A DNA stretch of 64,000 bases from Dehalococcoidales bacterium (GCA_016286345.1 JAEESL010000001.1:50219-114218); one strand, 5' to 3'. Shown: positions 12,090-57,597, counted from the stretch's first letter. Notes: generated from the letters alone by a model not told the origin. Numbers and translations are program-made.

Positions 12090-12095
12090 GAGGTA

Positions 12096-13298: not shown

Positions 13299-13309
13299 AG
13301 GAGAAAAAC

Positions 13310-32517: not shown

Positions 32518-33951
32518 TTAAATATAATTGAAACCAAACAGTCCAATACCGATTACGAGTGTTGCAGCTACAACCATAACTGTAAGAGGAAGCCATGATG
32601 CTTCGATCTTGCCTTTGTATTCGTTTTCTCCGGTCCACATGACTCTGATTACATTCAAATAGTATGCAGCGGAGATAACACTGTTCAAAACACCGATGAT
32701 GATCAGCACTGTATTATGAGTCGATGCAAAGACCTCAAACTTACCGATGAAGCCTGCTGTTGCAGGAAGACCCATAAGGGAAAGCAGGGCAATTGTTATA
32801 ACAACTGCGGCAAACGGTGCTTGTTTGGCAATACCGCGGTAGTTTTCGATCTTATCGCTTTTGATATGGTCGGATATAGTGATCACACCGGTGAATGCTG
32901 CTGCTTCTGCCAGGGCAAAAGCGACTGCAAATGTTATCAGACCAATGAATATCTCATAGTTTGAGACAGAAGCATCAGCAGCGTTCAGACAGAATGCTGC
33001 CAGTGCAAGCATCATGTAACCTGTCTGACTGATACCTGAGAATGCAAGCATCTTTTTAATGTTGGTCTGTCTGATTGCCCCGATATTACCGACAAGCATG
33101 CTGAGAACACTTAAGACTGCGATAACTATTGCAAGCTTAGGTGCAAGTACTGTAGGTGAACCATAGCTTACGATCTCTATTAGTCTTGCAAGGGTTGCCA
33201 TTCCGGCAAGTTTTGATGCTGTTGATAAGAACAGGGTTATTGTTGTCGGTGAACCGTCATAAACATCAGGTGCCCATGAATGGAACGGTACTGCTGCTGT
33301 CTTGAAACTGAATCCGGCGATAATCATTGCGATACCCAGAATCAGTCCGATCTCGGGATCAGCGGTACCCATGATTGAGAAGAAGATATCGTCGATGTTT
33401 ATTGATCCGGTATAGCCGAATACAAGTGACATACCGAATAGTAAAATTGCGGAGTTGATACCGCCAAGCAGAATATACTTCATACCTGCTTCAGCTGACT
33501 GTTTCGTATTCATTAGAGAAGTCAGTGCATAGAAAGACAGGGCCATAAGCTCAAGGGATGCGAACATTGAAATGAGGTTATATGATGATACCAGTAATGT
33601 CATGCCAAGCAGAGCAAGATTGATAAGAACAAGATATTCAGGATACTTGCTTTCAAAATTCTTCGCGTAATCCTGGCTTGCCATTACGACGAGAAGTGCA
33701 ATAACCGCGAAGAGCATTCTGAAATAGAATGAGGTCATATCAATACAAAGTAAACCCGAGGCATAAACAATACCGTGGCTCATTGGATCATACTGATAGA
33801 TTACAGTCAGTACGGCAGATGCGATGATACCGATGCAGCTGATTGCCGTAAGCACGTTTCTGTTTTTGATAAACAGACCTGAGATCAGGATGATAATTGC
33901 TGTCAGGGCAATACAAATTTCAGGTAAGAAAAAAGTAATTGTTTCTAGCAT
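32518..33951 (-). CDS. nuoN: NADH-quinone oxidoreductase subunit N
   Basis: 477 aa, about 14 TM, antiporter-like. Last gene of the nuo cluster. Confidence 0.85.
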   Translation of the reverse strand: MLETITFFLPEICIALTAIIILISGLFIKNRNVLTAISCIGIIASAVLTVIYQYDPMSHGIVYASGLLCIDMTSFYFRMLFAVIALLVVMASQDYAKNFESKYPEYLVLINLALLGMTLLVSSYNLISMFASLELMALSFYALTSLMNTKQSAEAGMKYILLGGINSAILLFGMSLVFGYTGSINIDDIFFSIMGTADPEIGLILGIAMIIAGFSFKTAAVPFHSWAPDVYDGSPTTITLFLSTASKLAGMATLARLIEIVSYGSPTVLAPKLAIVIAVLSVLSMLVGNIGAIRQTNIKKMLAFSGISQTGYMMLALAAFCLNAADASVSNYEIFIGLITFAVAFALAEAAAFTGVITISDHIKSDKIENYRGIAKQAPFAAVVITIALLSLMGLPATAGFIGKFEVFASTHNTVLIIIGVLNSVISAAYYLNVIRVMWTGENEYKGKIEASWLPLTVMVVAATLVIGIGLFGFNYI

Positions 33952-33966
33952 TCTTGTATCTCCTCC

Positions 33967-35436
33967 TTACAGCATGGCCAGAACAGCCGATACTCCACCC
34001 TTTATTAGACTTGTCATGAAATCCGGATAGAGACCTATTGTGAAAATCAGGATGACAAACAGAATGCAGTAGAACATTTCAAGGTTGTTTGCATCTTCCA
34101 TTTCATTGTAGATATCCAGTTTCGGTCCGAAGAACACTCTCTGTACTGTCCAGAGCATATATCCCGCACCGATAAGAAGTCCGAGCAGAGCGATCATAAC
34201 GATCGGATGAGTGCCTGCTACAACAGTAGATGAATATGTGCCGGTCATTATTGAGAATTCAGCGGCAAATCCGCTTGTAGTTGGTAATCCGATTGCACCG
34301 AGTGATGCAATAATGAAAAGTGTAGCAATCTTAGGCGTAGTCTGTCCGAGACCGCCGAGTTTTGCAATGTTTCTTTCATGAGCATTGTGCATTACAAGTC
34401 CTGCAACTGCGAACAGCAGACCGGTGGTGAGACCATGGCTGACCATCTGCAGTGTTGCACCGGTCATGCCGATTTCACTGAGCGAGAAGATACCAAGCAG
34501 AACAAAGCCCATATGGCTTACTGAGGAGTAGGCGATGAGTCTCTTGATATCAGTCTGTCTTAATGTGATGGCACCGCCGTAAATAATGCCGATGACTGCG
34601 AGTATTTCAAATAACAGGGCATAATGCTGTGCCATATCCGGCATACATGTGACACACAATCTCATAATTCCATAGCCGCCCATTTTGATCAGAGCACCTG
34701 CAAGCATGACACTGGCTGCTGTGGGGGCATCAGTGTGTGCATCAGGGAGCCATGTATGTAACGGGACAACAGGAAGTTTTACACAGAAACCGAGAATAAG
34801 CAGGAAGAACAGCAATGGAGCATAGCTTACTGCTGACAGTATTCCGCTTGAAGCAAGACTGACCATATCAAGCGTATTGGTCGAGACATAAACACAGACA
34901 ATACCCGCAAGCATGAAAGCACTTCCGAATAAAGTGTAGATAACATACTTTAATGCGGAATACTCTTTTCGTCCGCTTCCCCAGATCGAGATAAGGAAGT
35001 ACATAGGAATGACTTCGATTTCCCAGAACAGGAAGAACAGGACAAGGTCAAGAGCACAGAAAACACCGAGTATACTGCCTTCAAGAATAAGCAGCCATAC
35101 AAAGAACTCTCTTACTCTGAGATGTTCTTTCCATGAGATCAGTACTGCAACCATTCCAAGGAATGATGTGAGGATAACCATCGGCATGCTGAGTCCGTCG
35201 ACACCGACATGGTATGTGGCGCCGAAAGCATGGATCCAGTCATGTACGGCTTCAAACTGAATCGTATTTGAAGCTGATCTGTCGAATACGATGAACAGAT
35301 AGACAGACAGGGCAAACGGGACCATAGCGAAGAACAAAGCCATGTATTTATAGATCTTGTCTTCAACTTTTGGCATTAAAGCCAGAATTATAGCGCCAAT
35401 GATGGGGATAAAAATGATTAATGATAATATGCTCAT
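33967..35436 (-). CDS. nuoM: NADH-quinone oxidoreductase subunit M
   Basis: 489 aa antiporter-like subunit. Motifs WLPDAHTDAPTAASV and SVSHMGF. Confidence 0.88.
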   Translation of the reverse strand: MSILSLIIFIPIIGAIILALMPKVEDKIYKYMALFFAMVPFALSVYLFIVFDRSASNTIQFEAVHDWIHAFGATYHVGVDGLSMPMVILTSFLGMVAVLISWKEHLRVREFFVWLLILEGSILGVFCALDLVLFFLFWEIEVIPMYFLISIWGSGRKEYSALKYVIYTLFGSAFMLAGIVCVYVSTNTLDMVSLASSGILSAVSYAPLLFFLLILGFCVKLPVVPLHTWLPDAHTDAPTAASVMLAGALIKMGGYGIMRLCVTCMPDMAQHYALLFEILAVIGIIYGGAITLRQTDIKRLIAYSSVSHMGFVLLGIFSLSEIGMTGATLQMVSHGLTTGLLFAVAGLVMHNAHERNIAKLGGLGQTTPKIATLFIIASLGAIGLPTTSGFAAEFSIMTGTYSSTVVAGTHPIVMIALLGLLIGAGYMLWTVQRVFFGPKLDIYNEMEDANNLEMFYCILFVILIFTIGLYPDFMTSLIKGGVSAVLAML

Positions 35437-35437
35437 C

Positions 35438-37309
35438 TTATTTCACCACCATCATCAAAATTACAATTACGACAAGACCGATTACAGAGAGCAATCCGTA
35501 ACTCGGGATTCTGCCGTTCTGAACTGATCTGATAAGACCGCCGATTCCTTTGACTGCTTTGGCTACGGCGTTTACCAGTCCGTCGATTACATGTTTATCA
35601 AAGAATGCAAAAAATCTGAACAGTCCGTTTAGAAGTGCATCCTTGTTAATTCTGTCCTGAATGAGTTCATCCATATAGTATTTTCTGCTGAGAAGATTGT
35701 ATGTTTTCGGCAGTGCAGCAGATACTTTTTCGGCTGATATTTTCTTGAATTTATAAATTGTAAATGCAAGAAGAATACCAAAGGCAGCTGCAAGCAGTGA
35801 ACCCCAGGCAAGAGGATGAGCAAGTGCACCGACAAGCCCGGTTACAAATGACTGCGATTCTCCGCCGTCTACAAACACTGTGAATGCGTTGCTGCAGTTG
35901 ATCCATCCGACGAAAATGGCAAGGAATGCCAGAACGAACAGAGGGATGATCATGACATTCGGTGATTCATGGAGATGCTTGTCGCCTTTGTATTCACCGA
36001 AGAATACTTTGAATATGACTCGGAACATATAGAATGCTGTCAGACCTGCTGTTACAAGAAGGATTACAAATAATACAGGCTGAGCGCTCACTGCTGATCC
36101 GAGGATTCCTTCCTTGGAGAAGAAACCTGAAAGCGGCCATATTCCGGCAAGACTGAGAGAACCGATAAGGAATGTCCAGTAGGTCTTGGGCATAGCTTTC
36201 TTCAGTCCGCCCATTTTCCTCATGTCAAAGCTGTCTACAGCATGACTGATTGAACCGGCACCGAGGAAGAGCAGAGCTTTAAAGAATGCATGTGTGAAAA
36301 GATGGAACATACCGACGCTTACTCCGCCCAGTGCCAGACCGACAAACATATAACCGAGCTGGCTGATAGTGGAATAGGCAAGTACTTTTTTGATGTCCTG
36401 CATGACCAGTGCAATAGTTGCAGCAAATATTGCTGTTATGCCGCCAACCCAGGCAACAACTGTAAGGGTCTGGGGTGCAGCTTCGAACAGCGGGTACATT
36501 CTTGCAATCAGGAATACACCGGCTGCGACCATTGTGGCAGCATGGATCAGAGCACTGACAGGTGTAGGACCTTCCATGGCATCCGGAAGCCAGATGTGAA
36601 GAGGGAACTGGGCTGACTTACCCATTGAACCCAGGAACAGTCCCAGACATGACCATGTAAGAACGGCTGAACCTATGGCACCTGCGGCTGCAAGTCCGTG
36701 CAGTTCTGAAATAGTAAATGTACCGGTTGCATTGAACAGCATTATGAGTGCTGCCAGAATGCCGAGATCACCGATTCTGGTGATAAGGAATGCTTTCTTA
36801 GCTGCAGAGGCGGCTGATGGTTTGAAGAACCAGAATCCGATGAGCAGATAGGAACATAAACCGACGAGTTCCCAGCACATGAAAAGCATCAGCAAACTGT
36901 CAGCCAGTACAAGACCGAGCATCGAGAATGTGAATAATGCAACGAAACTGAAATAACGTCTGTATCCGTGATCACCGTGCATATATCCCATTGAGAATAT
37001 CTGTACCATCAGTGAAACGGTGTTGACGACCATCAGCATGACAGTCGATAACGGGTTCAGCTCGAGAGCAAATTTAACATTCAGTGCTCCGATGTTGAGC
37101 CATTGTACGGATGAAGTTGTGATATTTCCATCTGTGAATACATTTATCAAAGCCCACAGTGATAATAACCATGAGGCTGTTGTTGCAATAATTACATAAG
37201 GGGCTGAAGGGGAGTCTTTTTTGATCCAGCCGATTATCCATGTCAGAGCAAAAGCTGCCAGAGGAAGGAGCCATATTAACCAAATACAAATTTCAGGTAT
37301 TGTCATCAT
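35438..37309 (-). CDS. nuoL: NADH-quinone oxidoreductase subunit L
   Basis: 623 aa. WLPDAMEGPTPVSALIHAATMV, plus a C-terminal lateral-helix extension. Confidence 0.9.
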   Translation of the reverse strand: MMTIPEICIWLIWLLPLAAFALTWIIGWIKKDSPSAPYVIIATTASWLLSLWALINVFTDGNITTSSVQWLNIGALNVKFALELNPLSTVMLMVVNTVSLMVQIFSMGYMHGDHGYRRYFSFVALFTFSMLGLVLADSLLMLFMCWELVGLCSYLLIGFWFFKPSAASAAKKAFLITRIGDLGILAALIMLFNATGTFTISELHGLAAAGAIGSAVLTWSCLGLFLGSMGKSAQFPLHIWLPDAMEGPTPVSALIHAATMVAAGVFLIARMYPLFEAAPQTLTVVAWVGGITAIFAATIALVMQDIKKVLAYSTISQLGYMFVGLALGGVSVGMFHLFTHAFFKALLFLGAGSISHAVDSFDMRKMGGLKKAMPKTYWTFLIGSLSLAGIWPLSGFFSKEGILGSAVSAQPVLFVILLVTAGLTAFYMFRVIFKVFFGEYKGDKHLHESPNVMIIPLFVLAFLAIFVGWINCSNAFTVFVDGGESQSFVTGLVGALAHPLAWGSLLAAAFGILLAFTIYKFKKISAEKVSAALPKTYNLLSRKYYMDELIQDRINKDALLNGLFRFFAFFDKHVIDGLVNAVAKAVKGIGGLIRSVQNGRIPSYGLLSVIGLVVIVILMMVVK

Positions 37310-37316
37310 CTTACTA

Positions 37317-37619
37317 TCACTTCAATAAATTAATATCGTTGGTATCAATATCTTCAAAGTGACGGAAGATAGCCAGTACGATTGCAAGACCAATCGTGAC
37401 TTCAGCGGCAGCAACCACCATACTAAAGATAGTGAAAATATGACCATATGCCGTTGCAATTGCAGAAAACTTGGAGAAAGCAACAAGAGAAATGTTTACT
37501 GCATTCAGCATGATTTCAATACTGATGAAAATCATGATGGCGCTTCTTCGACTAAAAGCTCCATACAGACCTATGGCAAACAGAAGAAATGCGAGAATAA
37601 TATAATACTCAAGTGTCAT
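37317..37619 (-). CDS. nuoK: NADH-quinone oxidoreductase subunit K
   Basis: 100 aa with 3 TM helices and conserved membrane Glu residues (SIEIMLNA, AAAEVTIGLA). Confidence 0.88.
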   Translation of the reverse strand: MTLEYYIILAFLLFAIGLYGAFSRRSAIMIFISIEIMLNAVNISLVAFSKFSAIATAYGHIFTIFSMVVAAAEVTIGLAIVLAIFRHFEDIDTNDINLLK

Positions 37620-37621
37620 GA

Positions 37622-38107
37622 TTATTTCTCCCTCGCAACAGTTATTGCACCGACAATTGCTGTGAGAATAATCAGTGCTGCAATTATTACAAGAAGCACA
37701 TATCCGCTCTGATCAAACAGGGTGACTCCCAGTACATCGGTTTCTGTGCCGATCGGTGATGTGGTTCCGCTGAATTTTGAAGTCAATGCAGTGTAGCATC
37801 CCAGTGCGGCTACACATAATGCACCGATGATCGCAGGTATCTTCAATTTGTTTGATTTGTTTCCTGCTTCATTCTGTTTTGTCATCATCACTGTCATGAT
37901 GATGAGAACAGCAACTGCACCGATATAAACCATTACCTGAATTATTGCCAGGAATTCAGCACTAAGTGTGATGAATATTCCGGCAACTGAAAGGAAACAT
38001 ATGATCAGAGAGAATGCTGATCTGATCACTGATTTAGCCTGAATTGCATATATTGCTGATCCCAGCAGTACAAGGGAGAGAATATAGAATGCAATCTTTA
38101 ATCCCAT
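37622..38107 (-). CDS. nuoJ: NADH-quinone oxidoreductase subunit J
   Basis: 161 aa with 5 hydrophobic helices. Its start overlaps the nuoI stop by 1 nt. Confidence 0.8.
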   Translation of the reverse strand: MGLKIAFYILSLVLLGSAIYAIQAKSVIRSAFSLIICFLSVAGIFITLSAEFLAIIQVMVYIGAVAVLIIMTVMMTKQNEAGNKSNKLKIPAIIGALCVAALGCYTALTSKFSGTTSPIGTETDVLGVTLFDQSGYVLLVIIAALIILTAIVGAITVAREK

Positions 38108-40044
38108 TATTTCTCCTCCTTTACTGATTCCTCAGTCTTTTTCTCTTCTTCTTTTTTCTTCTTTTTGTCTGATTCTTCTTTATCGATATCAAGAAGCAAT
38201 GACTGATCAGGTAATTCTGAATCTAATTCCGAATGATAATATGAGCTTTTAGGAGCATCTATGAGGTGTTCCTTGTGAAGTACCTGATCTTCTGTCGTAT
38301 ATGTGGCTCGTTCATATTCGGAGCTTGAGAAAAGTGCACCGAACGGACAGGATTCAACACATAATCCGCAATATACACACTGTCCGCCTTTGAGATCATA
38401 ATGCGTGACTTCATACTGAAGATCACATCTGAGACATCTGTTTGCTTCAGCCTCAGCTGTTTCCTGATCCCAGCATTCCTCAACACATTCAAAATTGGTT
38501 ATTCTCGTATCAACGTCCGTGTACACGGAATCATGAACATTATCGGGATTGGGTCTTCCAGGTCGTAAAGGAAGAGGCATTTCGTTATGAAGTACTTCTG
38601 TGATATTGCCGTCTCCGCCAAGATATGTATCGATTGATTTGGCTGCAGTCTTGGCCTGGGCAACTGCCTGGATCACAGTTGATGAACCGAGTACATTGTC
38701 TCCTGCAGCATATATTCCGGGAATATCTGTGGCCATGGCACGGTCAACAATGATCCTGCTGTTGCTTTCATTCTTTTTAACTCCGAATGATTCGGGGACA
38801 ATGGGATACTGTGATGATGCGGAAATAACAGTGTCCACATCGATAATATATTCTGATCCCTCAATGGGAACAGGGGATCTTCGTCCTGATGCATCCACCG
38901 GACCAAGCTCCATTTTTTTACATTCTACTTTGAGCTGGCCGTTTTCCTCGAAGACTCGTACAGGAGAGGCAAGGTATTGCATATCAACACCTTCCTCAAT
39001 AGCCATATCTATTTCTTCGCTGTCTGCAGGCATTTCATTACGTGTTCTTCTGTACAGAACGAATACATTCTTTGCACCAAGTCTGACTGCGGTCCTGCAG
39101 CAGTCCATGGCAGTGTTTCCGCCGCCTACGATGACAACATTGTTGCCGATCTCGATTTTCTTGCCGAGAGCGACATCTTTGAGGAAGTAAACTCCTCCGA
39201 GAACGTGTTCGTTGTCTTCTCCGGGTATTCCAAGCTTTGCTGCTTCATGAGCACCTGTTGCAAGAAGAACTGAATCGAATCCGTTTCCGAGAAGGCTCTT
39301 CGGATCTTCAACTCTTGTATTGAATTTGAACTCACAGCCCATATCTTCAATCACTTTGACATCATGCATAAGTGCATCTTCAGGAAGTCTGAATCTGGGA
39401 ATACCGACAAGCATCATGCCTCCTGCCTTAGGAAGCTCATCGAATACTGTGACTTTATGACCTTTTCTGAGCAGATAATATGCTGCAGTCAGTCCGGCAG
39501 GACCTGCACCGATGATTGCAACGCTTTTACCTGTCGGTTCTGCTTGTTTTACATTTTTCATCCATCGTCCGTCATCATGTTCAACTGCATATCTCTTCAG
39601 TTTTCTGATGGCGACAGGATTATCAACCGTCTTTCTTGTACATGCTGATTCACAGGGATGGGCACAGACATAAGCACATGCAGACGGAAGAGGGAGCTGT
39701 TCTCTTATGATCGATAATGCTTCTTCAGGATTTCCTGTTGCGATTGCCCTGACGTATTTTGCCGCTTCAACTTTTGCGGGACACTTCATGATACAGGGAA
39801 GAAGCTTTCTCAGCTGTTTGGGCTGTTCACTTGTCTCGATGTGAATACTGTGATGAGGACAGGCATCTTCACATGTATAGCATCCGATACATTTTTCTGG
39901 ATTCCATGCAAGTGAAATACCTCGTTCTCTCTTTGCTAGGTTCAGCTTTTCTTCAGGATACTGAACCGTAATCGGTCCTCTCACAAGATTTTTGAGAGTG
40001 ACCTTCATTCCTTTTATGATACCTTGTCCGTAATGTCTACTCAT
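38107..40044 (-). CDS. nuoI: NuoI (2x[4Fe-4S] subunit) interrupted by a GltD/NfnB-like FAD/NAD(P)H oxidoreductase module; K/E-rich tail
   Basis: 645 aa.
- aa 1-75 are NuoI-like (ITVQYPEE, CIGCYTCEDACP).
- aa ~80-540 are GltD-like (CIMKCP..CAYVCAHPCESAC, VAIIGAGPAGLTAAYY, VVIVGGGNTAMDC, IYAAGD).
- aa 556-567 carry CVYCGLCVESCP, followed by a NuoI-type C-terminus.
- The tail is DKKKKKEEEKKTEESVKEEK. Confidence 0.85.
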   Translation of the reverse strand: MSRHYGQGIIKGMKVTLKNLVRGPITVQYPEEKLNLAKRERGISLAWNPEKCIGCYTCEDACPHHSIHIETSEQPKQLRKLLPCIMKCPAKVEAAKYVRAIATGNPEEALSIIREQLPLPSACAYVCAHPCESACTRKTVDNPVAIRKLKRYAVEHDDGRWMKNVKQAEPTGKSVAIIGAGPAGLTAAYYLLRKGHKVTVFDELPKAGGMMLVGIPRFRLPEDALMHDVKVIEDMGCEFKFNTRVEDPKSLLGNGFDSVLLATGAHEAAKLGIPGEDNEHVLGGVYFLKDVALGKKIEIGNNVVIVGGGNTAMDCCRTAVRLGAKNVFVLYRRTRNEMPADSEEIDMAIEEGVDMQYLASPVRVFEENGQLKVECKKMELGPVDASGRRSPVPIEGSEYIIDVDTVISASSQYPIVPESFGVKKNESNSRIIVDRAMATDIPGIYAAGDNVLGSSTVIQAVAQAKTAAKSIDTYLGGDGNITEVLHNEMPLPLRPGRPNPDNVHDSVYTDVDTRITNFECVEECWDQETAEAEANRCLRCDLQYEVTHYDLKGGQCVYCGLCVESCPFGALFSSSEYERATYTTEDQVLHKEHLIDAPKSSYYHSELDSELPDQSLLLDIDKEESDKKKKKEEEKKTEESVKEEK

Positions 40045-41101
40045 GCTGAAGCTCTCTTCCTGGTTTATATAGACCTGACCAGAGATAAATAATTAAGACT
40101 GTCATTACAATGGAGACCAGAACGACGATCCACTGAGCAAGATCCGGGAAGAAAGTGATTCTGACTGCAGTGAAAAGCAGATTGAATAATGCCAGAGGGA
40201 GAAGGAATTTCCAGCATAATGACATTGATTTTTCAACCGTTAAACGCGGGAGTGTGGCTCTTATCCATAAAATGAACAGGAAAACAATAACCATCTTGAT
40301 GAGCAGTGGAATGGGACCGTCTATGAATATTCCTTTGTAACCTCCGAGGAAAAGTGTCGCAACCAATGTTGACATTACAACTGCTTCACCATATTCGACA
40401 AGGTATAACATTGCGAATTTCATGCCGGAATACTCAATATTGAAACCTGCAACGATTTCACTGTCACATTCCATGACATCAAACGGAGTTCTGTTTATTT
40501 CTGCAAGTGATGAAATGAAATAGCATACAAATGCCAGCGGCATAAAGATGATATTCGGCAGAGACTGTGCGGCAACGATGCCGTTAACCGACATTGTTCC
40601 GCTGGAGATAACCAGGCTGATTAAAACGAGAAGCATGGGGATCTCATAACTGATGAACTGTGCAAGTCCTCGCATACCGCCGATGAGACCGTATTTGTTG
40701 TTGCATGCATAACCGCAGAGAAAAACACCGACAGAACTGATCGAACTGACTGCTGCGATGTAAATAATTCCGACATTGAGATCAACCAGCTGGAATCCCT
40801 TGGAGAAAGGAATTACGGCCAGGATCATCATTACCGGTACGAACGCCATTAAAGGAGATAGCCAGAACAGAATCTTGTCTGTTTTATTGGGAACAATGTC
40901 TTCCTTCAGCATTACTTTGATTACGTCGGCAATGCCCTGGAACAGTCCCAGTGGACCGATTCTGTTGGGACCTCTTCTGATCTGGAAAAAGCCGATCACT
41001 CTTCGCTCTGTCCAAATGAACATGACTATGAAGAAAAAGAAGTATGCGATCAGAATAACTGCGGCTATGACCAGATGCCACCAGAAATTTTCATACCACA
41101 T
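40037..41101 (-). CDS. nuoH: NADH-quinone oxidoreductase subunit H
   Basis: 354 aa, 8 TM. ERRVIGFFQIRRGPNRIGP and PFDVMECDSEIVAGFNIEYSG motifs. Confidence 0.9.
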   Translation of the reverse strand: MWYENFWWHLVIAAVILIAYFFFFIVMFIWTERRVIGFFQIRRGPNRIGPLGLFQGIADVIKVMLKEDIVPNKTDKILFWLSPLMAFVPVMMILAVIPFSKGFQLVDLNVGIIYIAAVSSISSVGVFLCGYACNNKYGLIGGMRGLAQFISYEIPMLLVLISLVISSGTMSVNGIVAAQSLPNIIFMPLAFVCYFISSLAEINRTPFDVMECDSEIVAGFNIEYSGMKFAMLYLVEYGEAVVMSTLVATLFLGGYKGIFIDGPIPLLIKMVIVFLFILWIRATLPRLTVEKSMSLCWKFLLPLALFNLLFTAVRITFFPDLAQWIVVLVSIVMTVLIIYLWSGLYKPGRELQHE

Positions 41102-42207
41102 TATCTATCGACCTCCCCCATGGATAGGTCGACACTGCCAAATGTGATGATGGCGTCGGAAAGAGTCTGACCGACCATTAATTTTTTCAATGCTGTTAAA
41201 TTAATAAATGCGGGGGCTCTGAAATGACATCTGTAAGGTTTATCAGAGCCATCGGATTCAAGGTAACATCCCAGGATACCTCTGGGTGATTCGATTCGTT
41301 TGTAAGTTTTACCTTCAGGAACGTGCAATACAACAGGTACTTTTGTCTGATACTTGCCTTCGGCCGGCATCATATCAAGAGCCTGTTCTATGATTGAAGC
41401 GCTTTGTTTCATTTCTTCCATTCGGATCCAAACTCTGTCATATACATCACCATTTTTGCCGACAGGTACATCAAACTTGAACTTGTTATAAATGGAGTAG
41501 GGAAGATCACGTCTGACATCAAAATCAACACCGGCACTTCGGAGTACGGGACCGCTTGTAGAAATATTAATTGCGTCTTCCCTGGTTAAAATTCCTACAC
41601 CTTTTGTTCTGGAAAGGTAGATTTCGTTATCGTACAAAAGATCTTCATATTCCTTCATGTATTTAGGGAATATTCTCAGGAATTTTCTGAGAAGAGGTAC
41701 GAATTCCTTGGGGAAGTCCTGAGACACGCCGCCGAAACGCATGTAGTTATACATCATTCGCTGACCCGTTACCATTTCCATCAGGTCGGTAAGCTTTTCT
41801 CTTTCACGGAACATATACATGAATACCGTGTAGAATGAGCCCATATCGTTCATCTGGGAACCGACCGCAAGATAATGTGATGAGATTCTCTGCATTTCGG
41901 CCATGATTACTCGCATATATTCGGCTTTTTCAGGTACTTCAATTCCTGCTAATTCTTCAACTGCCATAACATACGGCCAGTTATTATTGATCGCAGACAC
42001 GTAATCCAGACGATCTGTCATGGGAATGCCCTGCTTGTATGTACGCATTTCCATGAGTTTTTCCACACCTCTGTGCAGATAACCGAAAATAGGTTCAACG
42101 TCTTTGACTATTTCACCATCGAGAGTGATTCGCATTCTGAACACACCATGTGTGCTTGGATGCTGGGGACCGACATTAAGTACATATTCTTCAGTTTTAA
42201 ATGACAT
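41101..42207 (-). CDS. nuoD: NADH-quinone oxidoreductase subunit D
   Basis: NVGPQHPSTHGVFR motif and C-terminal ITFGSVDLSMGEVDR. I prefer the ATG at 42207 (GAAAGGA upstream) over the ORF-track TTG at 42240. Confidence 0.88.
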   Translation of the reverse strand: MSFKTEEYVLNVGPQHPSTHGVFRMRITLDGEIVKDVEPIFGYLHRGVEKLMEMRTYKQGIPMTDRLDYVSAINNNWPYVMAVEELAGIEVPEKAEYMRVIMAEMQRISSHYLAVGSQMNDMGSFYTVFMYMFREREKLTDLMEMVTGQRMMYNYMRFGGVSQDFPKEFVPLLRKFLRIFPKYMKEYEDLLYDNEIYLSRTKGVGILTREDAINISTSGPVLRSAGVDFDVRRDLPYSIYNKFKFDVPVGKNGDVYDRVWIRMEEMKQSASIIEQALDMMPAEGKYQTKVPVVLHVPEGKTYKRIESPRGILGCYLESDGSDKPYRCHFRAPAFINLTALKKLMVGQTLSDAIITFGSVDLSMGEVDR

Positions 42208-42610
42208 CTTTGAAGTCCTTTCGTTGAGGATGACCTTCAAAGCCGTCCCATAACACGATTCTCTTCAGATTCTTATGGCCTTTAAATACAATTCCCATAA
42301 GATCGAAAATCTCTCTTTCCTGAAAATCCGCCCCGGTCCATATATTTGACAGGGAGTCGATCTCAGGCTTTTCCCTTGGAACTGATGTTCTGATGATTAT
42401 GTCGGTCTTATCAACTACGTTTATTAATGTATATACAAGTAAGAATTTTTCATTATGATCTGAGGCTGTAATCATCTCCAGATAATCATATCCTGCTTCA
42501 TTTTTCAGCCATTCAGTGCATTCAAGAATATTTTCGGACGGAATCTCTGCAAATCCGTTTCCGGTTTTTACGTATTCAAACTGTTTGGAAAGAGCATCAT
42601 ATGTTTTCAT
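42197..42610 (-). CDS. nuoC: NADH-quinone oxidoreductase subunit C
   Basis: The WTGADFQEREIFDLMGIVFKGH motif is typical of NuoC. The ATG at 42610 overlaps the nuoB stop (ATGA); the ORF-track start is at 42634. Confidence 0.85.
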   Translation of the reverse strand: MKTYDALSKQFEYVKTGNGFAEIPSENILECTEWLKNEAGYDYLEMITASDHNEKFLLVYTLINVVDKTDIIIRTSVPREKPEIDSLSNIWTGADFQEREIFDLMGIVFKGHKNLKRIVLWDGFEGHPQRKDFKDVI

Positions 42611-43221
42611 TTTGATTTCTTTTCCCATTCGCATTTGTCATGATCGATTTTCTTTCGAAGTGTCTCAAGTCCATAAAGCAGAGTTTCTGGTCTTGGAGGA
42701 CAACCCGGGATATATACATCGACCGGAATAATATGGTTGTATCCGGGAACAACAGCATAGGAATCCTGGAATATTCCTCCGGATACAGCACATGCTCCCA
42801 TGGCGATTACCCATTTTGGTTCAGCCATCTGTTCATAAATTCGTTTGATCTGAGGCGCCATCTTCCAGGTCAGTGTTCCTCCGCATACAAGGAGATCTGC
42901 CTGTCTGGGGGATGGCCTGAGTACTTCCATTCCGAATCTTGCAATATCGAATCTGGACATGGAAGTGGCAATAAACTCAAATGTGCAGCAGGCAGTAAAA
43001 CATGTAACCGGCCATAATGATGCTTTGTGCGCCCAGTTTATTGCATCATCAAGTGTTGTAAGGATTATGTTTTTGTTTAATTCCTTGACAGTTTCATCAG
43101 ACCAGTCCATATCATCAGGGATAACTGCCTGACTGTCATGCCGAAGGTTCTTTATTTCACTGCCTTCATAAAAATCTGCTTCATTCAAAGAAGGGATGAA
43201 GGGCTGTTCAGCTATTTCCAT
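42607..43221 (-). CDS. nuoB: NADH-quinone oxidoreductase subunit B, with a ~55-aa N-terminal extension
   Basis: N2-cluster ligands are present (TACCTFEF, MGACAVSGG, GCPPRPE). The ATG at 43221 is preceded by AAGGAG; the ORF-track start is at 43242. Confidence 0.88.
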   Translation of the reverse strand: MEIAEQPFIPSLNEADFYEGSEIKNLRHDSQAVIPDDMDWSDETVKELNKNIILTTLDDAINWAHKASLWPVTCFTACCTFEFIATSMSRFDIARFGMEVLRPSPRQADLLVCGGTLTWKMAPQIKRIYEQMAEPKWVIAMGACAVSGGIFQDSYAVVPGYNHIIPVDVYIPGCPPRPETLLYGLETLRKKIDHDKCEWEKKSK

Positions 43222-43592
43222 TGCAACACTCCTTTCTTCCATGCATAAAAGAATCCACAGGCAATAATTGCCACGAATATAATGCCTGACCAGAATATAC
43301 TGACGGAATAAATACCGATATTCTTTAATGCGAGGCCCCAGAGGATAAGGAATATCAGTGAAGTATCCATTGCAGAAAGCATTAATGCATAGTAGTAGTA
43401 ATGAGGATTGAATCGGACCCAGCTGCGGTCAATTGTGACCAGACCACACTCGTAAGTGTTGTATTTGACATCTGATGGGTTCTTTTTCTCGAATTTAATA
43501 AACTCAAGAACCTGAGGCATGTAAGCGATAAAGGCGGAGAATGCCAAGCAAATAACCAAATACAATGCGATATAACCGTAATCAGTTAACAT
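43212..43592 (-). CDS. nuoA: NADH-quinone oxidoreductase subunit A
   Basis: 126 aa, 3 TM, YECG motif (YNTYECGLV). Confidence 0.85.
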   Translation of the reverse strand: MLTDYGYIALYLVICLAFSAFIAYMPQVLEFIKFEKKNPSDVKYNTYECGLVTIDRSWVRFNPHYYYYALMLSAMDTSLIFLILWGLALKNIGIYSVSIFWSGIIFVAIIACGFFYAWKKGVLQWK

Positions 43593-43681: not shown

Positions 43682-44146
43682 TTACAGATTTTTTTCACGT
43701 TTTATGATTGTACAGACCTTATCTGATACGTCTTCTACGAATGATATGCACTGTTTTTTTCTTTCAGGTGAATTGAATATCAAATCTTTTGACAGTATTC
43801 TGCAGCATATTGCACGATGGTCTGCTCTGAATGCATCGTGCAGTTCCTTTCCAAGATTTTTTGCAACAGTTCCTTTCGGATCAAATGCCTGATGACGTCC
43901 GAAAATCATTCCGAGCACCATTACTCCGCCGGCCACAGCACCGCAGGTACACCCGGCACCACCCATGCCTGCTGAGAAGCCTGAAGACAATGCAATTACT
44001 TCTTCCGGAATGTCAATATGTAATTCTTCCACAAATGCTCTGAGAACTGATTCTCCGCATCCGAATGATCCTGATGAATACAGTTCGGCGGCTCTTTTCT
44101 TTATTGCTTCAGTATCGATTGTTTGCACATTGATTTCGTATGACAT
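43682..44146 (-). CDS. C_GCAxxG_C_C family (putative redox-active) protein
   Basis: 154 aa. Motifs FGCGESVLRAF, GGAGCTCGAVAGG and ICCRIL. Same strand as nuoA and 89 bp upstream of it. Confidence 0.7.
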   Translation of the reverse strand: MSYEINVQTIDTEAIKKRAAELYSSGSFGCGESVLRAFVEELHIDIPEEVIALSSGFSAGMGGAGCTCGAVAGGVMVLGMIFGRHQAFDPKGTVAKNLGKELHDAFRADHRAICCRILSKDLIFNSPERKKQCISFVEDVSDKVCTIIKREKNL

Positions 44147-45689: not shown

Positions 45690-46376
45690 ATGTCAAAAGA
45701 GACAAACTTGGTTTCCCGACGAGAGTTTCTTAAAGATGCCGGACTTGTAGTTGGCGGTGCAACTGTAGGTTCTGCGGCATTACTCTCTGCTTGTAAAAAC
45801 AATGGCAAGAGCGGCAGTGTAACCAAATATGTATGTCCGCTCGATTCCAAGGAATTCGATTCATTACAGGCTTTAAAAGATCACTATGCATCAGCTCATG
45901 AAGGAGTTGCCTTACCTGATTTCAAGACATTGAACATCAATGGTGTTGATTATTCATTAATTATCAATGATTATTGGTCTCTTGCATGGGTATTACGTGA
46001 AACATTAGGACTTTATGGTACCAAAGTTGGTTGCGACATGGGTCAGTGCGGTGCTTGTACAGTCATCGTTGATGACAAACCTATGTATGCCTGTTTACTT
46101 TTCGCATGCGAAATGGAAGGAAAGAAGATCCGAACTGTTGAAGGTTTGGCTGACTATGGCAATAAGTTAAACAAAGTCCAGCAGGCTTTCCATGATGCTA
46201 ATGCTACACAGTGCGGTTTCTGTACTTCAGGCTTCTTGATGGCTGCTCAGGCTCTTATTGAACGCAATTCAAGCCCAAGTGAAGATGAAGTAAGACACGC
46301 ATTATCAGGACATCTCTGCATGTGCCAGAACTTTAAGAAGACAATCGAAGCGGTTGTCGCAGCAGGAGGTAAATAA
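45690..46376 (+). CDS. XDH/aldehyde-oxidoreductase family [2Fe-2S] small subunit with Tat signal and lipobox (module 1)
   Basis: SRREFLK twin-arginine motif, then LLSAC. 2Fe-2S motifs GCDMGQCGACTV and CGFCTSGF...CMC. Confidence 0.85.
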   Translation: MSKETNLVSRREFLKDAGLVVGGATVGSAALLSACKNNGKSGSVTKYVCPLDSKEFDSLQALKDHYASAHEGVALPDFKTLNINGVDYSLIINDYWSLAWVLRETLGLYGTKVGCDMGQCGACTVIVDDKPMYACLLFACEMEGKKIRTVEGLADYGNKLNKVQQAFHDANATQCGFCTSGFLMAAQALIERNSSPSEDEVRHALSGHLCMCQNFKKTIEAVVAAGGK

Positions 46377-48700
46377 TGGCTCTTCCTGAAATGAAAGTAA
46401 TGGGTTTAGGAACCCCGGGTAATGACAAAATCAGATCATTCTTTATGGATGACCTTTTGACTGGTAAACCTCGATTTGTCGGTGACCGACATTTCGCTGG
46501 TCAGCTTTATGCAGTTGCTAAGCATGCAACAGTAGATCATGCTAACATCACTAAAATTGACGCATCAGAAGCTCTCAAAGTTCCCGGCGTCGTTAAAGTT
46601 CTTACATATGATACCAACCCTGAATGGGCACGAACTGCCCCGATTCTTTACAAGACAGTACCTTTCTATGGCGCTCCTATTGCCCTGATTATCGCGACTG
46701 ACTGGTATATTGCACAGCGTGCAGTCAATCTTGTAAAGGTTGATTATGAAGTCCTTCCTGCCGTCATCAAGACAACTGATGTCATGGCTGATGATGAAGC
46801 AATGACCAGAGATACTTCAGCTCCTTTGAGCGGTAGATTTGCTGATTCCAACTTCCAGTCATCTGGTGTTACCAACCGAGGTGATGTTGATGCTGCCTTG
46901 AAGTCTGCTGCATACACCAGGACAATCAGTGATATGCCTTGGACTACACGATATCAGCATCAGCCTCTTGAACAGTATGAAGCACTTGCTTACTGGTCTG
47001 GTGATGAAGTTTATGTTTATATCGCTTCACAGAACATTCATGGTCATCATCGATCCCTTCACAATTGGACCGGAATTCCTTTGAATAAACTTCATGTCTA
47101 TTCTCCCGGCTGCGGTGGCGGTCTCGGTACACGACTTAACAACCCTGAAGCATTAATGGCAGTATTTGCATCCAAGGAAGTTGACGGACGACCTGTTCTT
47201 TACAAATGCACCAAGAAACATTCAATGCTTTTCGGCGGACGACAGTTTGATGCACGATCAGTTATCACTATCGGTTGTGATAAGGACGGCAAACTGGTCG
47301 CTCTGGATGTCAAATATGTCTGCAACGGCTATGGTGCAGGTATTACTCCTATCTTCTCCAAGACCTTAACTATCCCTAACATGAGATATGAAGGCACCAG
47401 ACTTTATCTTAATGATCAGGACCGATGTGCATGGCGTTGTGTTAATGATCCTCCTACTGGTTATCATTTCACTCATGCTCTTGATCTTGTTGCTGAAGAT
47501 CTCAACATGCGACCTGATGAAATCCGATTGAAGAATATCATGGGTGAACATGATGTTGATCAGGATTCAGGTCTTCCTTTCGGTACTAAGGAAGTCAATG
47601 CATGTCTTGATAAAGTACTTCAGGAGAGCGGATTCGCTTCCAAGTGGCACAAGCCCGGTACTAAGAAACTGGCAGATGGCCGACTCCATGGTATCGGTGT
47701 CCATTGTCATCATGATAGCCATGGCCGAATCGCTGGTTCTGACCGTGCTACTATCGTTCTTATGCTTCAGGATGGTACTGCAGCAGTTCTCGATGGTGGT
47801 TCTGCACCTCACAACCAGATGACTGAACAGGCTATCGTTGCAGCAGAAGTCCTCGGTCTTAAGATCGATGATGTCAAGACTCCTGTCTATGGTAACAGTG
47901 ATGCAACCCTCAACGGCGGTATGCATGGCGGTTCATCATTCACTGGTTCTACCGGTGGTGCTACCATGAAAGCAGCTGAACAGTGCCGAAAGCAGGTCTT
48001 TGAAGCTGCATGCAAGAATGCAACATTCTCTGCAGTAAATGCAAAACCTGAAGATCTTGATTCAAAAGATAGTGTTATCTTCCTTAAGAGAGATCCTTCA
48101 GTCAAAGCAACATTCGCTGCAATTTGTTCATCGGCTCTCAATCCTATCGGTGGCATTGGACACGGCTGGAACAACGTTGATGCAGACGGCACCGGCGGTT
48201 TACAGAGACCTAAGGATGGTTTCGAAGTCGGTCACAATACTGAAATGGGTTCTGCCTGCGCAGATGTCTGCGAAGTCGCAGTTGATCCTGAAACTGGCGA
48301 AGTAGAAATTCTCGAACACTGGAATGCAGTCGGTACCGGACGTGTTATCTACACCGACGGTGTACTTCAGCAGATGGGTTCAGGTACTGAACTTCAGGTC
48401 AACATGGCCCTCTACTATGGTGATATCAAAGATATTCCTACCGGTAATATTATCGGTACCCAGTACACTGAATCACAGATGATAACAACCCTCGACTGCA
48501 ACCCTTCACGATATCATCTGTATCCTATTGAAGGTGATAACCATACCGGTCCTCTCGGTGCTCATGGTATCGGTGAACCTTGTGTTGGTGGTTACTGCTG
48601 TATTCTCTCAGCAATCTATAACGCAATTGGTAAGTGGGTCGACACTGACCATGGTGCTTGTAACCCTGATAGAGTTCTCAAGGCTCTTGGAAAGGCATAG
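46376..48700 (+). CDS. XDH/aldehyde-oxidoreductase family molybdopterin-binding large subunit (module 1)
   Basis: 774 aa. GCGGGLGTR (compare GGGFGGK) and C-terminal GAHGIGEP, which holds the catalytic Glu context. Start overlaps the small-subunit stop (ATAATG). Confidence 0.85.
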   Translation: MALPEMKVMGLGTPGNDKIRSFFMDDLLTGKPRFVGDRHFAGQLYAVAKHATVDHANITKIDASEALKVPGVVKVLTYDTNPEWARTAPILYKTVPFYGAPIALIIATDWYIAQRAVNLVKVDYEVLPAVIKTTDVMADDEAMTRDTSAPLSGRFADSNFQSSGVTNRGDVDAALKSAAYTRTISDMPWTTRYQHQPLEQYEALAYWSGDEVYVYIASQNIHGHHRSLHNWTGIPLNKLHVYSPGCGGGLGTRLNNPEALMAVFASKEVDGRPVLYKCTKKHSMLFGGRQFDARSVITIGCDKDGKLVALDVKYVCNGYGAGITPIFSKTLTIPNMRYEGTRLYLNDQDRCAWRCVNDPPTGYHFTHALDLVAEDLNMRPDEIRLKNIMGEHDVDQDSGLPFGTKEVNACLDKVLQESGFASKWHKPGTKKLADGRLHGIGVHCHHDSHGRIAGSDRATIVLMLQDGTAAVLDGGSAPHNQMTEQAIVAAEVLGLKIDDVKTPVYGNSDATLNGGMHGGSSFTGSTGGATMKAAEQCRKQVFEAACKNATFSAVNAKPEDLDSKDSVIFLKRDPSVKATFAAICSSALNPIGGIGHGWNNVDADGTGGLQRPKDGFEVGHNTEMGSACADVCEVAVDPETGEVEILEHWNAVGTGRVIYTDGVLQQMGSGTELQVNMALYYGDIKDIPTGNIIGTQYTESQMITTLDCNPSRYHLYPIEGDNHTGPLGAHGIGEPCVGGYCCILSAIYNAIGKWVDTDHGACNPDRVLKALGKA

Positions 48701-48714
48701 TTTAGGAGGATACT

Positions 48715-54468: not shown

Positions 54469-55167
54469 ATGAAAGATAAAGACGAAGAAAAGGCGGTACT
54501 GTCAAGACGTCAATTTCTTAAGGACGCCGGTATCGTTCTGGGCACCTCAGCAGTCGGTTCAGCTGCTCTTCTTTCCGCATGCGGAACCAATGAAATAACC
54601 AAGACTGACACAGTCACAAAAACATCGACCGTGACCAAAAACGTCACGACTACCGTGGTAGAAAAAGAAACTCTGCCCCTGCCTATCGAAACAGAAAATG
54701 GCAGACTTCTGATCTCATTCACAGTCAATGGCAAGAAATTCGATGCCACAGTCGAACCCAGAGAAACCCTGCATCATCTGCTTCATGAACAGCTCGGATT
54801 CAAATCCGTAAAGACGTTCTGCAGCAGAGGCGGATGCGGTTCATGCAGCGTTCTTCTTGACGGAAGACCTGTTTTATCTTGCATGACTTTTGCATCATCA
54901 GTCGGAGGAAAAGATATCTGGACATCCGACGGCATCGGCAAGGAAATGCCTGAACTGATCGAAGCTTATATCGACAACGAATGTATGCAGTGCGGTTACT
55001 GCACTCCCGGTTTCATCGTAACTGCAGCTGCTCTTTTGAAACGTAATGGCAATCCTTCAACAGATGAAATAAGAGAGGCATTGGCAGGGAACTTATGCAG
55101 ATGCGGTACATATCCCGTCCACATCAAAGCAGTTCACGAAGCTGCCTCAGCAATGGGAGGTAAATAG
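54469..55167 (+). CDS. XDH/aldehyde-oxidoreductase family [2Fe-2S] small subunit with Tat signal and lipobox (module 2)
   Basis: SRRQFLK, then LLSAC, then a Thr-rich linker. 2Fe-2S motifs CSRGGCGSCSV and CGYCTPGF...CRCG. Confidence 0.85.
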   Translation: MKDKDEEKAVLSRRQFLKDAGIVLGTSAVGSAALLSACGTNEITKTDTVTKTSTVTKNVTTTVVEKETLPLPIETENGRLLISFTVNGKKFDATVEPRETLHHLLHEQLGFKSVKTFCSRGGCGSCSVLLDGRPVLSCMTFASSVGGKDIWTSDGIGKEMPELIEAYIDNECMQCGYCTPGFIVTAAALLKRNGNPSTDEIREALAGNLCRCGTYPVHIKAVHEAASAMGGK

Positions 55168-55169
55168 AG

Positions 55170-57581: not shown

Positions 57582-57597
57582 GAGGGGGAAATAGACA

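Follow-up and report, generated by a model that had tools for sequence, protein, structure and literature searches.

In many anaerobes complex I consists of 11 subunits and lacks NuoE, NuoF and NuoG, and what donates its electrons is a long-standing question. Other inputs for such a NuoEFG-less core are FpoF/FqoF, in the F420H2 dehydrogenases of archaea, and the site for ferredoxin formed by NdhS/V/O in NDH-1; both consist of subunits of their own that differ in fold and substrate (F420H2, ferredoxin), and neither is a domain within NuoI. For marine Dehalococcoidia, genome papers have described an 11-subunit Nuo complex without the N-module, with a donor either unknown or of the FpoF type (PMC4959651, PMC5736913). 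Here we describe an operon of this kind from a Dehalococcoidales bacterium (GCA_016286345.1, JAEESL010000001.1:50219-114218; the whole stretch of 64,000 nucleotides is called the window), where the donor site appears to be encoded in the operon itself, as a flavoprotein cassette inserted in the NuoI subunit.

A GltD-related flavoprotein at the position of NuoI has one precedent. Mbx-like operons of Thermotoga and some proteobacteria were described in which a flavoprotein related to gltD stands in for NuoI and was interpreted as the place where NAD(P)+ is reduced (Degli Esposti 2015, PMC4758237). A solved electron wire that starts from a GltD-type module is that of DPD, which runs from NADPH to FAD, two GltD-type [4Fe-4S] clusters, a [4Fe-4S] pair in an 8Fe-ferredoxin fold and the acceptor (PMC8097209). 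Even closer is StnC of the StnABC complex, solved by cryo-electron microscopy, in which a NuoG-like protein houses a GltD-like domain (residues 102-565) that binds FAD and NADPH and carries two [4Fe-4S] clusters, C7 and C6. This domain has lost bifurcation and passes its electrons sequentially, one at a time, into the cluster chain of the host, with K170 as a ligand of the FAD-proximal cluster and R239 as a residue required for activity (PMC10482914). No description of a NuoI-GltD fusion was found in the full-text literature searched, whose coverage is thin on subscription journals, and the mbx-like remark (PMC4758237) was the sole precedent there.

Our reading of the locus, to which we give a probability of roughly 55%, is that it represents a kind of respiratory complex I not recognised so far, with one NADPH-FAD-[4Fe-4S]2 cassette within NuoI in place of the whole three-subunit NADH module, and that this arrangement evolved at least twice, at the hairpin of NuoI in Dehalococcoidia and ahead of the first cluster motif in Actinomycetota/Bacillota.

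A NuoI subunit split by a flavoprotein cassette

An earlier note on the window had claimed that NuoI is split here by an inserted GltD/NfnB-like flavoprotein module. The gene concerned is, in the open reading frame (ORF) listing of the window, a single uninterrupted ORF of 645 codons on the minus strand (38107..40044); residues are numbered along its 645-aa product, and the cassette-bearing NuoI is called I*. All the motifs on which the claim had been based were found where it had placed them: ITVQYPEE at aa 25-32, CIGCYTCEDACP at 52-63, CIMKCP at 84-89, CAYVCAHPCESAC at 123-135, VAIIGAGPAGLTAAYY at 175-190, VVIVGGGNTAMDC at 302-314, IYAAGD at 444-449 and CVYCGLCVESCP at 556-567, as well as a Lys/Glu tail at the end of the ORF (aa 621-645). 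The protein is composed of the following parts:

39808..40044, minus strand: aa 1-79, with the N-terminal arm of NuoI (TVQYPEE...RERG), its first 4Fe-4S motif CIGCYTCEDACP (aa 52-63) and the outgoing strand of the hairpin; by NCBIfam and a hidden Markov model (HMM)
39565..39798, minus strand: Fe-S domain of the cassette, aa 83-160, with Cys84, 88, 123, 127, 131, 135 and Lys150 as ligands for two [4Fe-4S] clusters; by Fer4_20, aligning to StnC 103-180
38611..39531, minus strand: FAD and NADPH domains of the cassette, aa 172-478; by Pyr_redox_2, invariant motifs and a model pLDDT mostly of 84-98
38422..38532, minus strand: permuted segment of the cassette, aa 505-541, RITNFECVEE...EANRCLRC, giving Cys537 and Cys540; aligning to the NfnB N-terminus (14-43)
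38185..38421, minus strand: aa 542-620, with the returning strand of the NuoI hairpin, the second 4Fe-4S motif CVYCGLCVESCP (aa 556-567) and a C-terminal arm that has the conserved LP.Q.LL; by NCBIfam and HMM
38110..38184, minus strand: low-complexity tail rich in Lys/Glu, aa 621-645, with K/E making up 76% of these last 25 residues

Profile searches set the borders of these parts. Pfam placed Fer4 at aa 47-67, Fer4_20 at 83-156 (7.6e-17), Pyr_redox_2 at 174-464 (1.1e-32) and a second Fer4 at about 555-579, so that the insert does contain FAD/NAD(P)-binding domains in addition to Fer4_20. Two separate stretches of the protein were hit by the NuoI models of NCBIfam, aa 9-79 at model positions 16-90 and aa 541-597 at positions 87-143 of 162 (E 1e-19 to 1e-22), and GltD-type NCBIfam models span aa 83-543 (E 9e-139). 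The splitting of NuoI by a GltD-type flavoprotein module is thus confirmed, with an insert of about 460 aa lying between the two CxxCxxCxxxCP motifs.

Deletion of residues 80-541 left a protein of 183 aa that gave one collinear alignment to solved NuoI/TYKY chains (E 1e-21 to 8e-23), as for residues 8-149 of the spliced query against 39-179 of 8b9z_I (E 2.5e-21), and the only gap, three residues at the splice junction, corresponds to the turn of the hairpin between the two cluster motifs. The spliced protein also spans TIGR01971 (NuoI) from position 1 to 121 of 121 in one stretch. Its closest relatives are NuoI proteins of 165-202 aa, 45-50% identical over 96% of the query, of which the named ones come from metagenome-assembled genomes (MAGs) of Dehalococcoidia/Chloroflexi. 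An HMM of canonical NuoI was built from these relatives (189 positions, cluster motifs at 53 and 92), and against it the N-terminal part of the fused proteins, designated type A, covers positions 2-75 and the C-terminal part positions 77-16x, with the insert falling between 75 and 77. A 40-sequence alignment showed that both junctions are conserved: on the C side the RCL(R/K)C element of the cassette (C537, C540) is directly contiguous with the NuoI strand, and on the N side there is a linker (aa 72-82) of variable sequence and length. The hairpin stalk is formed in the AlphaFold model by strands 67-77 and 542-552, and the cysteines of the first (C52, C55, C58, C62) and second (C556, C559, C562, C566) NuoI cluster motifs are invariant in the family. 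Judged from these alignments, the 645-aa protein is a genuine NuoI with a cassette at the tip of its hairpin.

The Lys/Glu tail is limited to the protein's own 90% cluster, is weaker or partial in the nearest relative (68% identical) and is a peculiarity of the strain, outside the conserved device. Canonical and fused Dehalococcoidia NuoI proteins otherwise end in a conserved PSGY.(R/H)PE..LP.Q.LL followed by short variable charged ends. A role of the tail as a functional ferredoxin-docking element was rejected, since other family members and canonical NuoI end differently.

Relationship of the cassette to StnC and NfnABC

Three solved proteins align with residues 83-542 over the whole of the cassette, namely 9bov_A 103-568 (NfnABC of Caldicellulosiruptor saccharolyticus, E 1.5e-114), 8oh5_C 103-567 (StnC of Sporomusa ovata, E 1.6e-101) and 9n5u_A (NfnABC of Thermococcus sibiricus). 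The AlphaFold model, with a mean pLDDT of 83 and values mostly of 84-98 in the cassette, gave 9bov, StnC and 9n5u as top Foldseek matches, the matches including NfnABC, StnC, NfnI, GltD and DPD. On the other hand, NfnB (4ylf_B) aligned in HMMER as two swapped pieces, query 83-480 with NfnB 46-464 and query 512-541 (..RITNFECVEE..EANRCLRC) with NfnB 14-43, whereas StnC is collinear; therefore, the cassette is circularly permuted relative to GltD, NfnB and DPD, as in StnC, and a plain NfnB/GltD insert was rejected. The permuted cassette ends in the PCxxxCP and RCLxC Cys elements, which are neighbours in the unpermuted proteins, so its termini should meet at an Fe-S cluster, an arrangement that should suit a cassette placed in a loop of a different Fe-S protein.

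The two residues singled out in StnC have their counterparts here, as K150 aligns to StnC K170 and R219 to StnC R239. Among the 110 type A sequences K150 is invariant, and C84, C88, C123, C127, C131, C135, C537, C540, R219, G179/181/184, G307/309/A312 and G448/D449 are invariant or nearly so. These positions make up the FAD and NADPH motifs of the cassette (GAGPAG at 179-184, R219, GGGNTA at 307-312, YRR at 331-333 and GD at 448-449) and its cluster ligands. When the 42 sequences of the second fusion described below (type B) are added to the 110, the 16 Cys, GxGxxG, GGGxxA, YRR and GD are still invariant or nearly so, K150 being kept in 41 of the 42, and R536, C537 and C540 are invariant across 409 cassettes. 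Eight Cys of the cassette and eight of NuoI make up these 16, which are enough for four [4Fe-4S] clusters. The YRR triplet (Y331-R332-R333) is found in 99 of the 110 type A sequences, and because the YRRT..EMPA segment to which it belongs is common to the NADPH-binding StnC and NfnB, the cassette probably prefers NADPH.

Altogether, the insert is, by homology, a permuted GltD-like cassette of the StnC/NfnABC type. Of the earlier label 'GltD/NfnB-like', the GltD part holds and the NfnB part does not, as a circularly permuted StnC/NfnABC type takes the place of plain NfnB; the module would be more precisely described as NADPH-type, from its YRR, and as non-bifurcating and StnC-like, from its Lys ligand. 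A divergent NAD(P)-binding subdomain is present in about 10% of type A, the P0192 cluster (46 members), with C-L-E at the YRR position, past the second Rossmann strand, and its acidic residue may, speculatively, indicate that this subgroup switched to NADH. The same C-L-E change is carried by P0265 (Chloroflexota), a protein without the QYP arm of NuoI and with a predicted C-terminal transmembrane helix.

Recurrence and synteny of the type A fusion

A protein search retrieved about 80 clusters (90% identity) of proteins of 612-648 aa, with 94-99% query coverage and 44-68% identity, the named ones being each a 'FAD-dependent oxidoreductase' of Dehalococcoidia, Dehalococcoidales or Chloroflexota; the taxonomy given here and below rests on the names attached to database clusters. 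Down to 42% identity, the 110 type A sequences share the architecture and both junctions, and they originate from NCBI, ENA, JGI and Logan assemblies; the fused form recurs and is under selection. Long NuoI homologues are thus represented by more than 100 relatives, and those with a name are MAGs of Dehalococcoidia/Chloroflexota.

The genomic context is equally constant. The loci L002-L006 show the full order nuoABCDH-I*-JKLMN without E/F/G, L011 starts at the fusion gene and shows I*-JKLMN only, and L001 is a Dehalococcoidales rumen MAG with a 68% identical copy; nuoE, nuoF and nuoG are absent from all the related nuo loci inspected. Moreover, a Dehalococcoidia MAG (L012) has a canonical NuoI of 181 aa in the same operon slot. 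This locus and the fused L004 share upstream and flanking genes, an ORF of 60-64 aa between nuoK and nuoL, and Nuo subunits that are 46-67% identical, and the spliced NuoI of L004 is 52% identical to the NuoI of L012. The insert is therefore the main difference between the two loci, whose likeness means that the cassette entered the lineage's own nuoI, in an operon that already lacked EFG.

Two other features of these loci may be recorded. The ORF of 60-64 aa, which has no Pfam hit, lies between nuoK and nuoL at 12771-12953 in L004, 12692-12874 in L006 and 6252-6446 in L012, thus in fused and canonical Dehalococcoidia operons (L004 and L012 copies 54% identical); in the window, nuoK and nuoL are spaced by 7 nt and no such ORF occurs between them. 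A gene for NAD kinase, the enzyme that makes NADP+, follows downstream of nuoN in the same orientation, immediately in L012 (11477-12301, canonical NuoI) and after a few other genes in L011 (11095-11934, fused NuoI), a pairing that may be coincidental.

A second fusion of NuoI with the cassette

A profile search of 1.84 billion representatives revealed a second topology, type B (P0204, P0273), in which the N-terminal arm of NuoI is followed by the cassette and then by a complete two-motif NuoI core. Here the insert lies between positions 44 and 49 of the canonical NuoI HMM, just ahead of the first cluster motif. About 40 clusters of 616-680 aa belong to this type, and the named ones are from Actinobacteria/Actinomycetota plus one Firmicutes (Bacillota) MAG; in full, the type B proteins are P0204, P0273, P0367-P0404 and P0474. 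The residues of the cofactor sites are likewise conserved in type B (42 sequences). Its genes were seen in nuo operons without EFG from Actinomycetota, a Bacillota MAG and contigs of marine sediment, and four of its loci are:

L007, 10001-11962: type B gene between nuoH and nuoJ, operon without EFG
L008, 1082-2947: type B gene on a short contig, with only nuoH visible upstream
L009, 10001-11851: type B gene between nuoH and nuoJ, operon without EFG
L010, 10001-11923: type B gene between nuoH and nuoJ, operon without EFG

The insertion sites of the two types are about 30 NuoI positions apart, and their cassettes also fall into different lineages. In a comparison of 409 cassettes, every one of type A was nearer to some cassette outside NuoI (mean best identity 0.65) than to any of type B (0.50), and type B likewise had 0.57 to cassettes outside NuoI vs 0.52 to type A. 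A tree built by neighbour-joining on identity distances only placed 39 of the 42 type B cassettes in one clade, which lies outside the 150-leaf clade that holds 98 of type A. Different insertion sites together with different cassette lineages imply convergent acquisition; a single ancestral event was rejected on these grounds, and the data indicate that type A and type B probably acquired the cassette independently, by convergent evolution. In the operons of L009 (actinobacterial) and L007 (marine sediment) five antiporter-like subunits and an ORF of 107-108 aa without Pfam hit were also seen.

The nearest relatives of type A cassettes outside NuoI are fusions of the cassette with NuoF and with FrdB-like proteins. 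In the NuoF-like fusions (P0104, P0105, P0114; about 1013 aa) the cassette is up to 73% identical to that of type A. The examined locus of this sort (L013, 5550-11776) is part of a Wood-Ljungdahl cluster (CODH/ACS, MTHFR) and lies beside NuoE-like and FdhA/NuoG-like genes, which suggests an NADPH-linked formate dehydrogenase of Bfu type or a transhydrogenase. The other group consists of four proteins 690-700 aa long, P0193, P0194, P0199 and P0202. Inspected by eye, P0193 resembles in its N-terminal half the iron-sulfur subunit of succinate dehydrogenase/fumarate reductase, with the cassette following, so that it may be an NADPH-linked protein of FrdB type; P0194, P0199 and P0202 match the profile over ranges similar to P0193, the resemblance having been read in the P0193 sequence only. 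The cassettes of P0193 and P0194 sit in the neighbour-joining clade that holds most of type A.

The operon and the rest of the complex

The operon has 11 genes in the order nuoA, B, C, D, H, I*, J, K, L, M, N, as assigned by Pfam, with I* as the sixth gene and sole nuoI, placed between nuoH and nuoJ. Its coding sequence overlaps that of nuoH by 8 nt and that of nuoJ by 1 nt, and the GC content is uniform, about 0.40-0.46 across the region. The other genes, all assigned by Pfam, are:

43212-43592, minus strand: nuoA
42607-43242, minus strand: nuoB
42197-42634, minus strand: nuoC
41101-42240, minus strand: nuoD
40037-41101, minus strand: nuoH
37622-38107, minus strand: nuoJ (Oxidored_q3, Oxidored_q2 and Proton_antipo_M/N across nuoJ-N)
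37317-37619, minus strand: nuoK
35438-37309, minus strand: nuoL
33967-35436, minus strand: nuoM
32518-33951, minus strand: nuoN

The nuoA-nuoH block (40037..43592) corresponds to the Q-module and its connection to the membrane arm, and the nuoJ-nuoN block (32518..38107) to the proton-pumping membrane arm. The membrane subunits NuoA, H, J, K, L, M and N are thus all encoded. As for the N-module, the earlier statement that the operon has no NuoE, NuoF or NuoG was borne out and extends to the whole window, since the Pfam scans found no domain of the three in any ORF scanned across the 64 kb. HydB/NuoF-like and HydC/NuoE-like partners and a NuoG-like host, as in the StnABC/NfnABC complex, were likewise not found in the operon or the window.

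NuoD carries GPQHPSTHG and RTYKQGIPMTDRLDY (RTYKQ..DRLDY) and no hydrogenase Cys pair, and NuoB carries the tandem-Cys TACCTFEF, GACAVSGG and PGCPP. We take the NuoD motifs to hold the quinone-ligand residues His38 and Tyr87 of Thermus thermophilus Nqo4, and those of NuoB to be the cluster N2 motif of T. thermophilus Nqo6, identities that were judged by motif and not by structural alignment. From these motifs, the core is predicted to be that of a quinone-type complex I and not of Mbx or hydrogenase type. Directly upstream of nuoA, on the same strand, there is a gene for a 154-aa 'putative redox-active protein' with a C_GCAxxG_C_C pattern (43682-44146, minus strand), a gene that the related loci inspected do not share at this place ahead of nuoA.

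Comparison with described systems

The closest likeness is to StnC (StnABC, PDB 8oh5) and to NfnA of NfnABC (9bov, 9n5u), whose cassettes are likewise permuted, in the order PC..CP, FAD, NADPH and RCLxC. In both StnC and the protein of the window the cassette lies inside a host Fe-S protein and has a Lys cluster ligand, the conserved Arg and a YRR NADPH segment, and in Stn it is a non-bifurcating entry of NADPH into the Fe-S cluster chain. Unlike StnC, whose host is a soluble NuoG-like subunit, the host here is the NuoI of a membrane-bound complex I, the operon has no StnA/StnB (HydC/HydB-like) bifurcating partners, and position 123 is Cys instead of the Ile of StnC. The protein would work, in short, like the input domain of StnC but is not a member of the StnABC/NfnABC complex.

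With the N-module of NuoE, NuoF and NuoG the cassette would share its role, the oxidation of a nicotinamide at a flavin and the delivery of single electrons to N6a/N6b of NuoI. The folds are unrelated, as FAD in an adrenodoxin-reductase-like domain takes the place of FMN in NuoF, and there are two relay clusters instead of a longer chain, one inserted domain instead of three subunits, and an NADPH-type instead of an NADH-type signature. The nuoE/F/G genes that a canonical 14-subunit complex I requires are missing from the operon, the 64-kb window and the related loci.

As to the mbx-like operons, compared here by their published description and not by protein sequence, they also have a GltD-related flavoprotein at the NuoI position of a complex-I-like cluster, with NAD(P)(H) as the proposed substrate. 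However, they are Mbx/Mrp-type clusters whose NuoD homologues have vestigial hydrogenase Cys and are thought not to be quinone-reactive, whereas here there is a nuoA-N set; an Mrp-type operon, vestigial NiFe Cys and the lack of a quinone site, which mark the mbx-like group, are not seen. DPD offers a precedent for a relay from a GltD-type module to a ferredoxin fold, and the predicted sequence of cofactors matches its own as far as the NuoI clusters; DPD differs in that its ferredoxin domain belongs to the other subunit of a soluble homodimer, the acceptor is FMN/uracil and the cassette is not permuted. Such a relay also recurs in many soluble proteins in which the cassette is joined to a 2x[4Fe-4S] ferredoxin or splits it. 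Among them, PRK12771 'NAD(P)-binding protein' and soluble cassette-ferredoxin proteins (P0299, P0266, P0217) have the cassette fused to 2x[4Fe-4S] ferredoxin motifs, and P0266 even has the split-ferredoxin topology of the query, which matches PRK12771 over aa 70-577 with 454 bits, under the cut-off of 516. These proteins lack the N- and C-terminal arms of NuoI and are uncharacterised. What appears to be new, therefore, is a complex I with a single-domain input module of NADPH type, which would have arisen at least twice.

Proposed mechanism and alternative explanations

In the mechanism that we propose, NADPH would bind at the second Rossmann fold (GGGNTA...YRR) and transfer a hydride to FAD, which would give its two electrons singly to a proximal [4Fe-4S] cluster (Cys88/127/131 and Lys150). 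From there, electrons would reach a distal [4Fe-4S] cluster (Cys537/540/84/135) at the NuoI junction, this assignment of residues to clusters being our assumption by analogy with DPD and NfnB, and would then continue through N6a/N6b of NuoI and N2 of NuoB to quinone at the NuoD/NuoH site, whose reduction would drive proton pumping by NuoH/J/K/L/M/N. The path would be reversible, so that reduction of NADP+ driven by the proton-motive force would be possible. That the cassette is a catalytic point of entry or exit for NAD(P)H, wired to the clusters of NuoI, we consider quite probable, and the idea that a NAD(P)H flavoprotein grafted in NuoI is the built-in input of a NuoEFG-less complex I is supported by its folds, Fe-S ligands, recurrence, StnC homology and second fusion. 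The best reading of the whole enzyme would be a reversible NADPH:quinone oxidoreductase that pumps protons and has a single inserted domain in the place of NuoE, NuoF and NuoG, because NuoD keeps the His/Tyr of the quinone site and NuoB the tandem-Cys N2 motif; electron-transfer competence across the junction and the physiological direction are what we infer.

Several observations weigh against this proposal. The hairpin stalk could hold the cassette too far from N6a/N6b, and GltD-type clusters are very low-potential (PMC8097209), which would make some transfer steps uphill. The assignment to NADPH depends on the homology of the YRR segment, a triplet that is C-L-E in 11 of the 110 type A sequences, those of the P0192 group. 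As for the host, the spliced NuoI scores 97.5 bits, under the TIGR01971 cut-off of 113.05 (75-79 bits when unspliced), and its orthology rests on synteny and collinearity because the NuoI of this lineage is divergent and scores under the cut-off. Moreover, all carriers are MAGs or metagenome contigs, and the absence of nuoEFG covers the 64-kb window and the inspected loci only.

Among the alternatives, the most serious, though unlikely, is that the cassette is an output module, with reduced ferredoxin oxidised at NuoI and NADP+ reduced at the cassette, in an ion-pumping ferredoxin:NADP+ oxidoreductase, whether or not quinone takes part. Ferredoxin oxidation at NuoI has models in photosynthetic NDH-1 and in enzymes of the Fpo-like and Mbx types. 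Ferredoxin is often proposed as the donor of 11-subunit Nuo complexes, GltD-like modules are reversible (PMC8097209; for the reverse reaction of Stn, PMC10482914) and the gltD-related subunit of mbx-like operons was read as a site of NAD(P)+ reduction (Degli Esposti 2015, PMC4758237). However, the quinone-ligand and N2 motifs are retained in NuoD and NuoB, NuoH, NuoA, NuoJ and NuoK are all present, unlike in Mbx, and no ferredoxin-docking subunit was seen in the operon; in addition, complex I is coupled at quinone reduction, and a transfer from ferredoxin to NADP+ via NuoI alone would skip the coupling site. An auxiliary or regulatory appendage, by which NuoEFG or another donor would be encoded elsewhere and the cassette would be a side entry, a redox sensor or a structural element, comes next in likelihood and is improbable as well. 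Its case is that a related Chloroflexi genome was reported with an 11-subunit nuo operon and a separate nuoEFG operon (PMC5736913), that NuoE- and NuoF-like genes occur in Dehalococcoidia contigs, and that the scan for nuoEFG covered the 64-kb window of this genome. Yet the NuoE/F-like genes seen, in L013, sit in a cluster for the Wood-Ljungdahl pathway and formate dehydrogenase, away from nuo genes, for which reason they were rejected as the missing N-module; the conservation of catalytic and ligand residues over 152 sequences and two independent acquisitions by NuoI point to a catalytic role in electron transfer, and, by analogy with canonical complex I, a domain of 460 aa on NuoI may clash with the docking surface of NuoG.

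Very improbable, in our view, is bifurcation or confurcation in the manner of NfnB, by which the FAD of the cassette would divide electron pairs over two branches, or unite them from there, one branch being the NuoI chain to quinone and the other a second, low-potential partner, for example ferredoxin. It would draw on the homology to bifurcating NfnB, including the Arg equivalent to NfnB R201, and on Cys123, common to NfnB and absent from StnC. Against it, the ligand of the proximal cluster is the invariant Lys (K150) of non-bifurcating StnC and not the Glu of NfnB, the operon has neither an NfnA-like [2Fe-2S]/FAD partner nor a HydBC/StnAB-like module, and the two [4Fe-4S] clusters, which in NfnB form the low-potential branch, lead here toward the high-potential path of quinone. 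The earlier note had also allowed for an artefact, namely a chimeric assembly or a frameshift-merged pair of genes, for which no supporting point was found. The same two junctions occur in more than 100 sequences at 42-100% identity from four assembly sources (NCBI, ENA, JGI, Logan), the architecture recurs at the nuoI position in independent assemblies, the operon context is the same in every locus examined, C537/C540 are contiguous with the NuoI strand and the GC content is uniform; an artefact was thus rejected, its likelihood being practically negligible.

Other features of the window

Outside the nuo operon, the window contains two paralogous three-gene operons for molybdo-flavoenzymes of the xanthine-dehydrogenase/CO-dehydrogenase type, each with 2Fe-2S, Mo-cofactor and FAD subunits, with a DDE transposase gene between the two, and a complete cluster for riboflavin biosynthesis:

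10358-13771, plus strand: ribD, ribE, ribBA and ribH
45690-49650, plus strand: first molybdo-flavoenzyme operon
52095-53798, minus strand: DDE transposase
54469-58560, plus strand: second molybdo-flavoenzyme operon

Meaning of the finding

The fusion genes are currently annotated as 'FAD-dependent oxidoreductase' or 'glutamate synthase beta subunit-like', and automated pathway calls therefore score nuoI as missing, so that genome annotation would gain from recognising them as nuoI. Two independent insertions at different sites of NuoI would be a natural experiment on how much geometric change the wiring of electron transfer tolerates. If the proposal of an NADPH-fed complex I is true, a proton-pumping NADPH:quinone oxidoreductase would join the respiratory enzymes, and the anabolic pool of NADPH would be tied directly to the membrane potential, in both directions. 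The input end of complex I would then be modular and could be rebuilt from a single domain, which would also provide a minimal system for the entry of electrons into the N6a/N6b-N2 chain. For these lineages, it would answer what feeds the 'headless' 11-subunit complex I.

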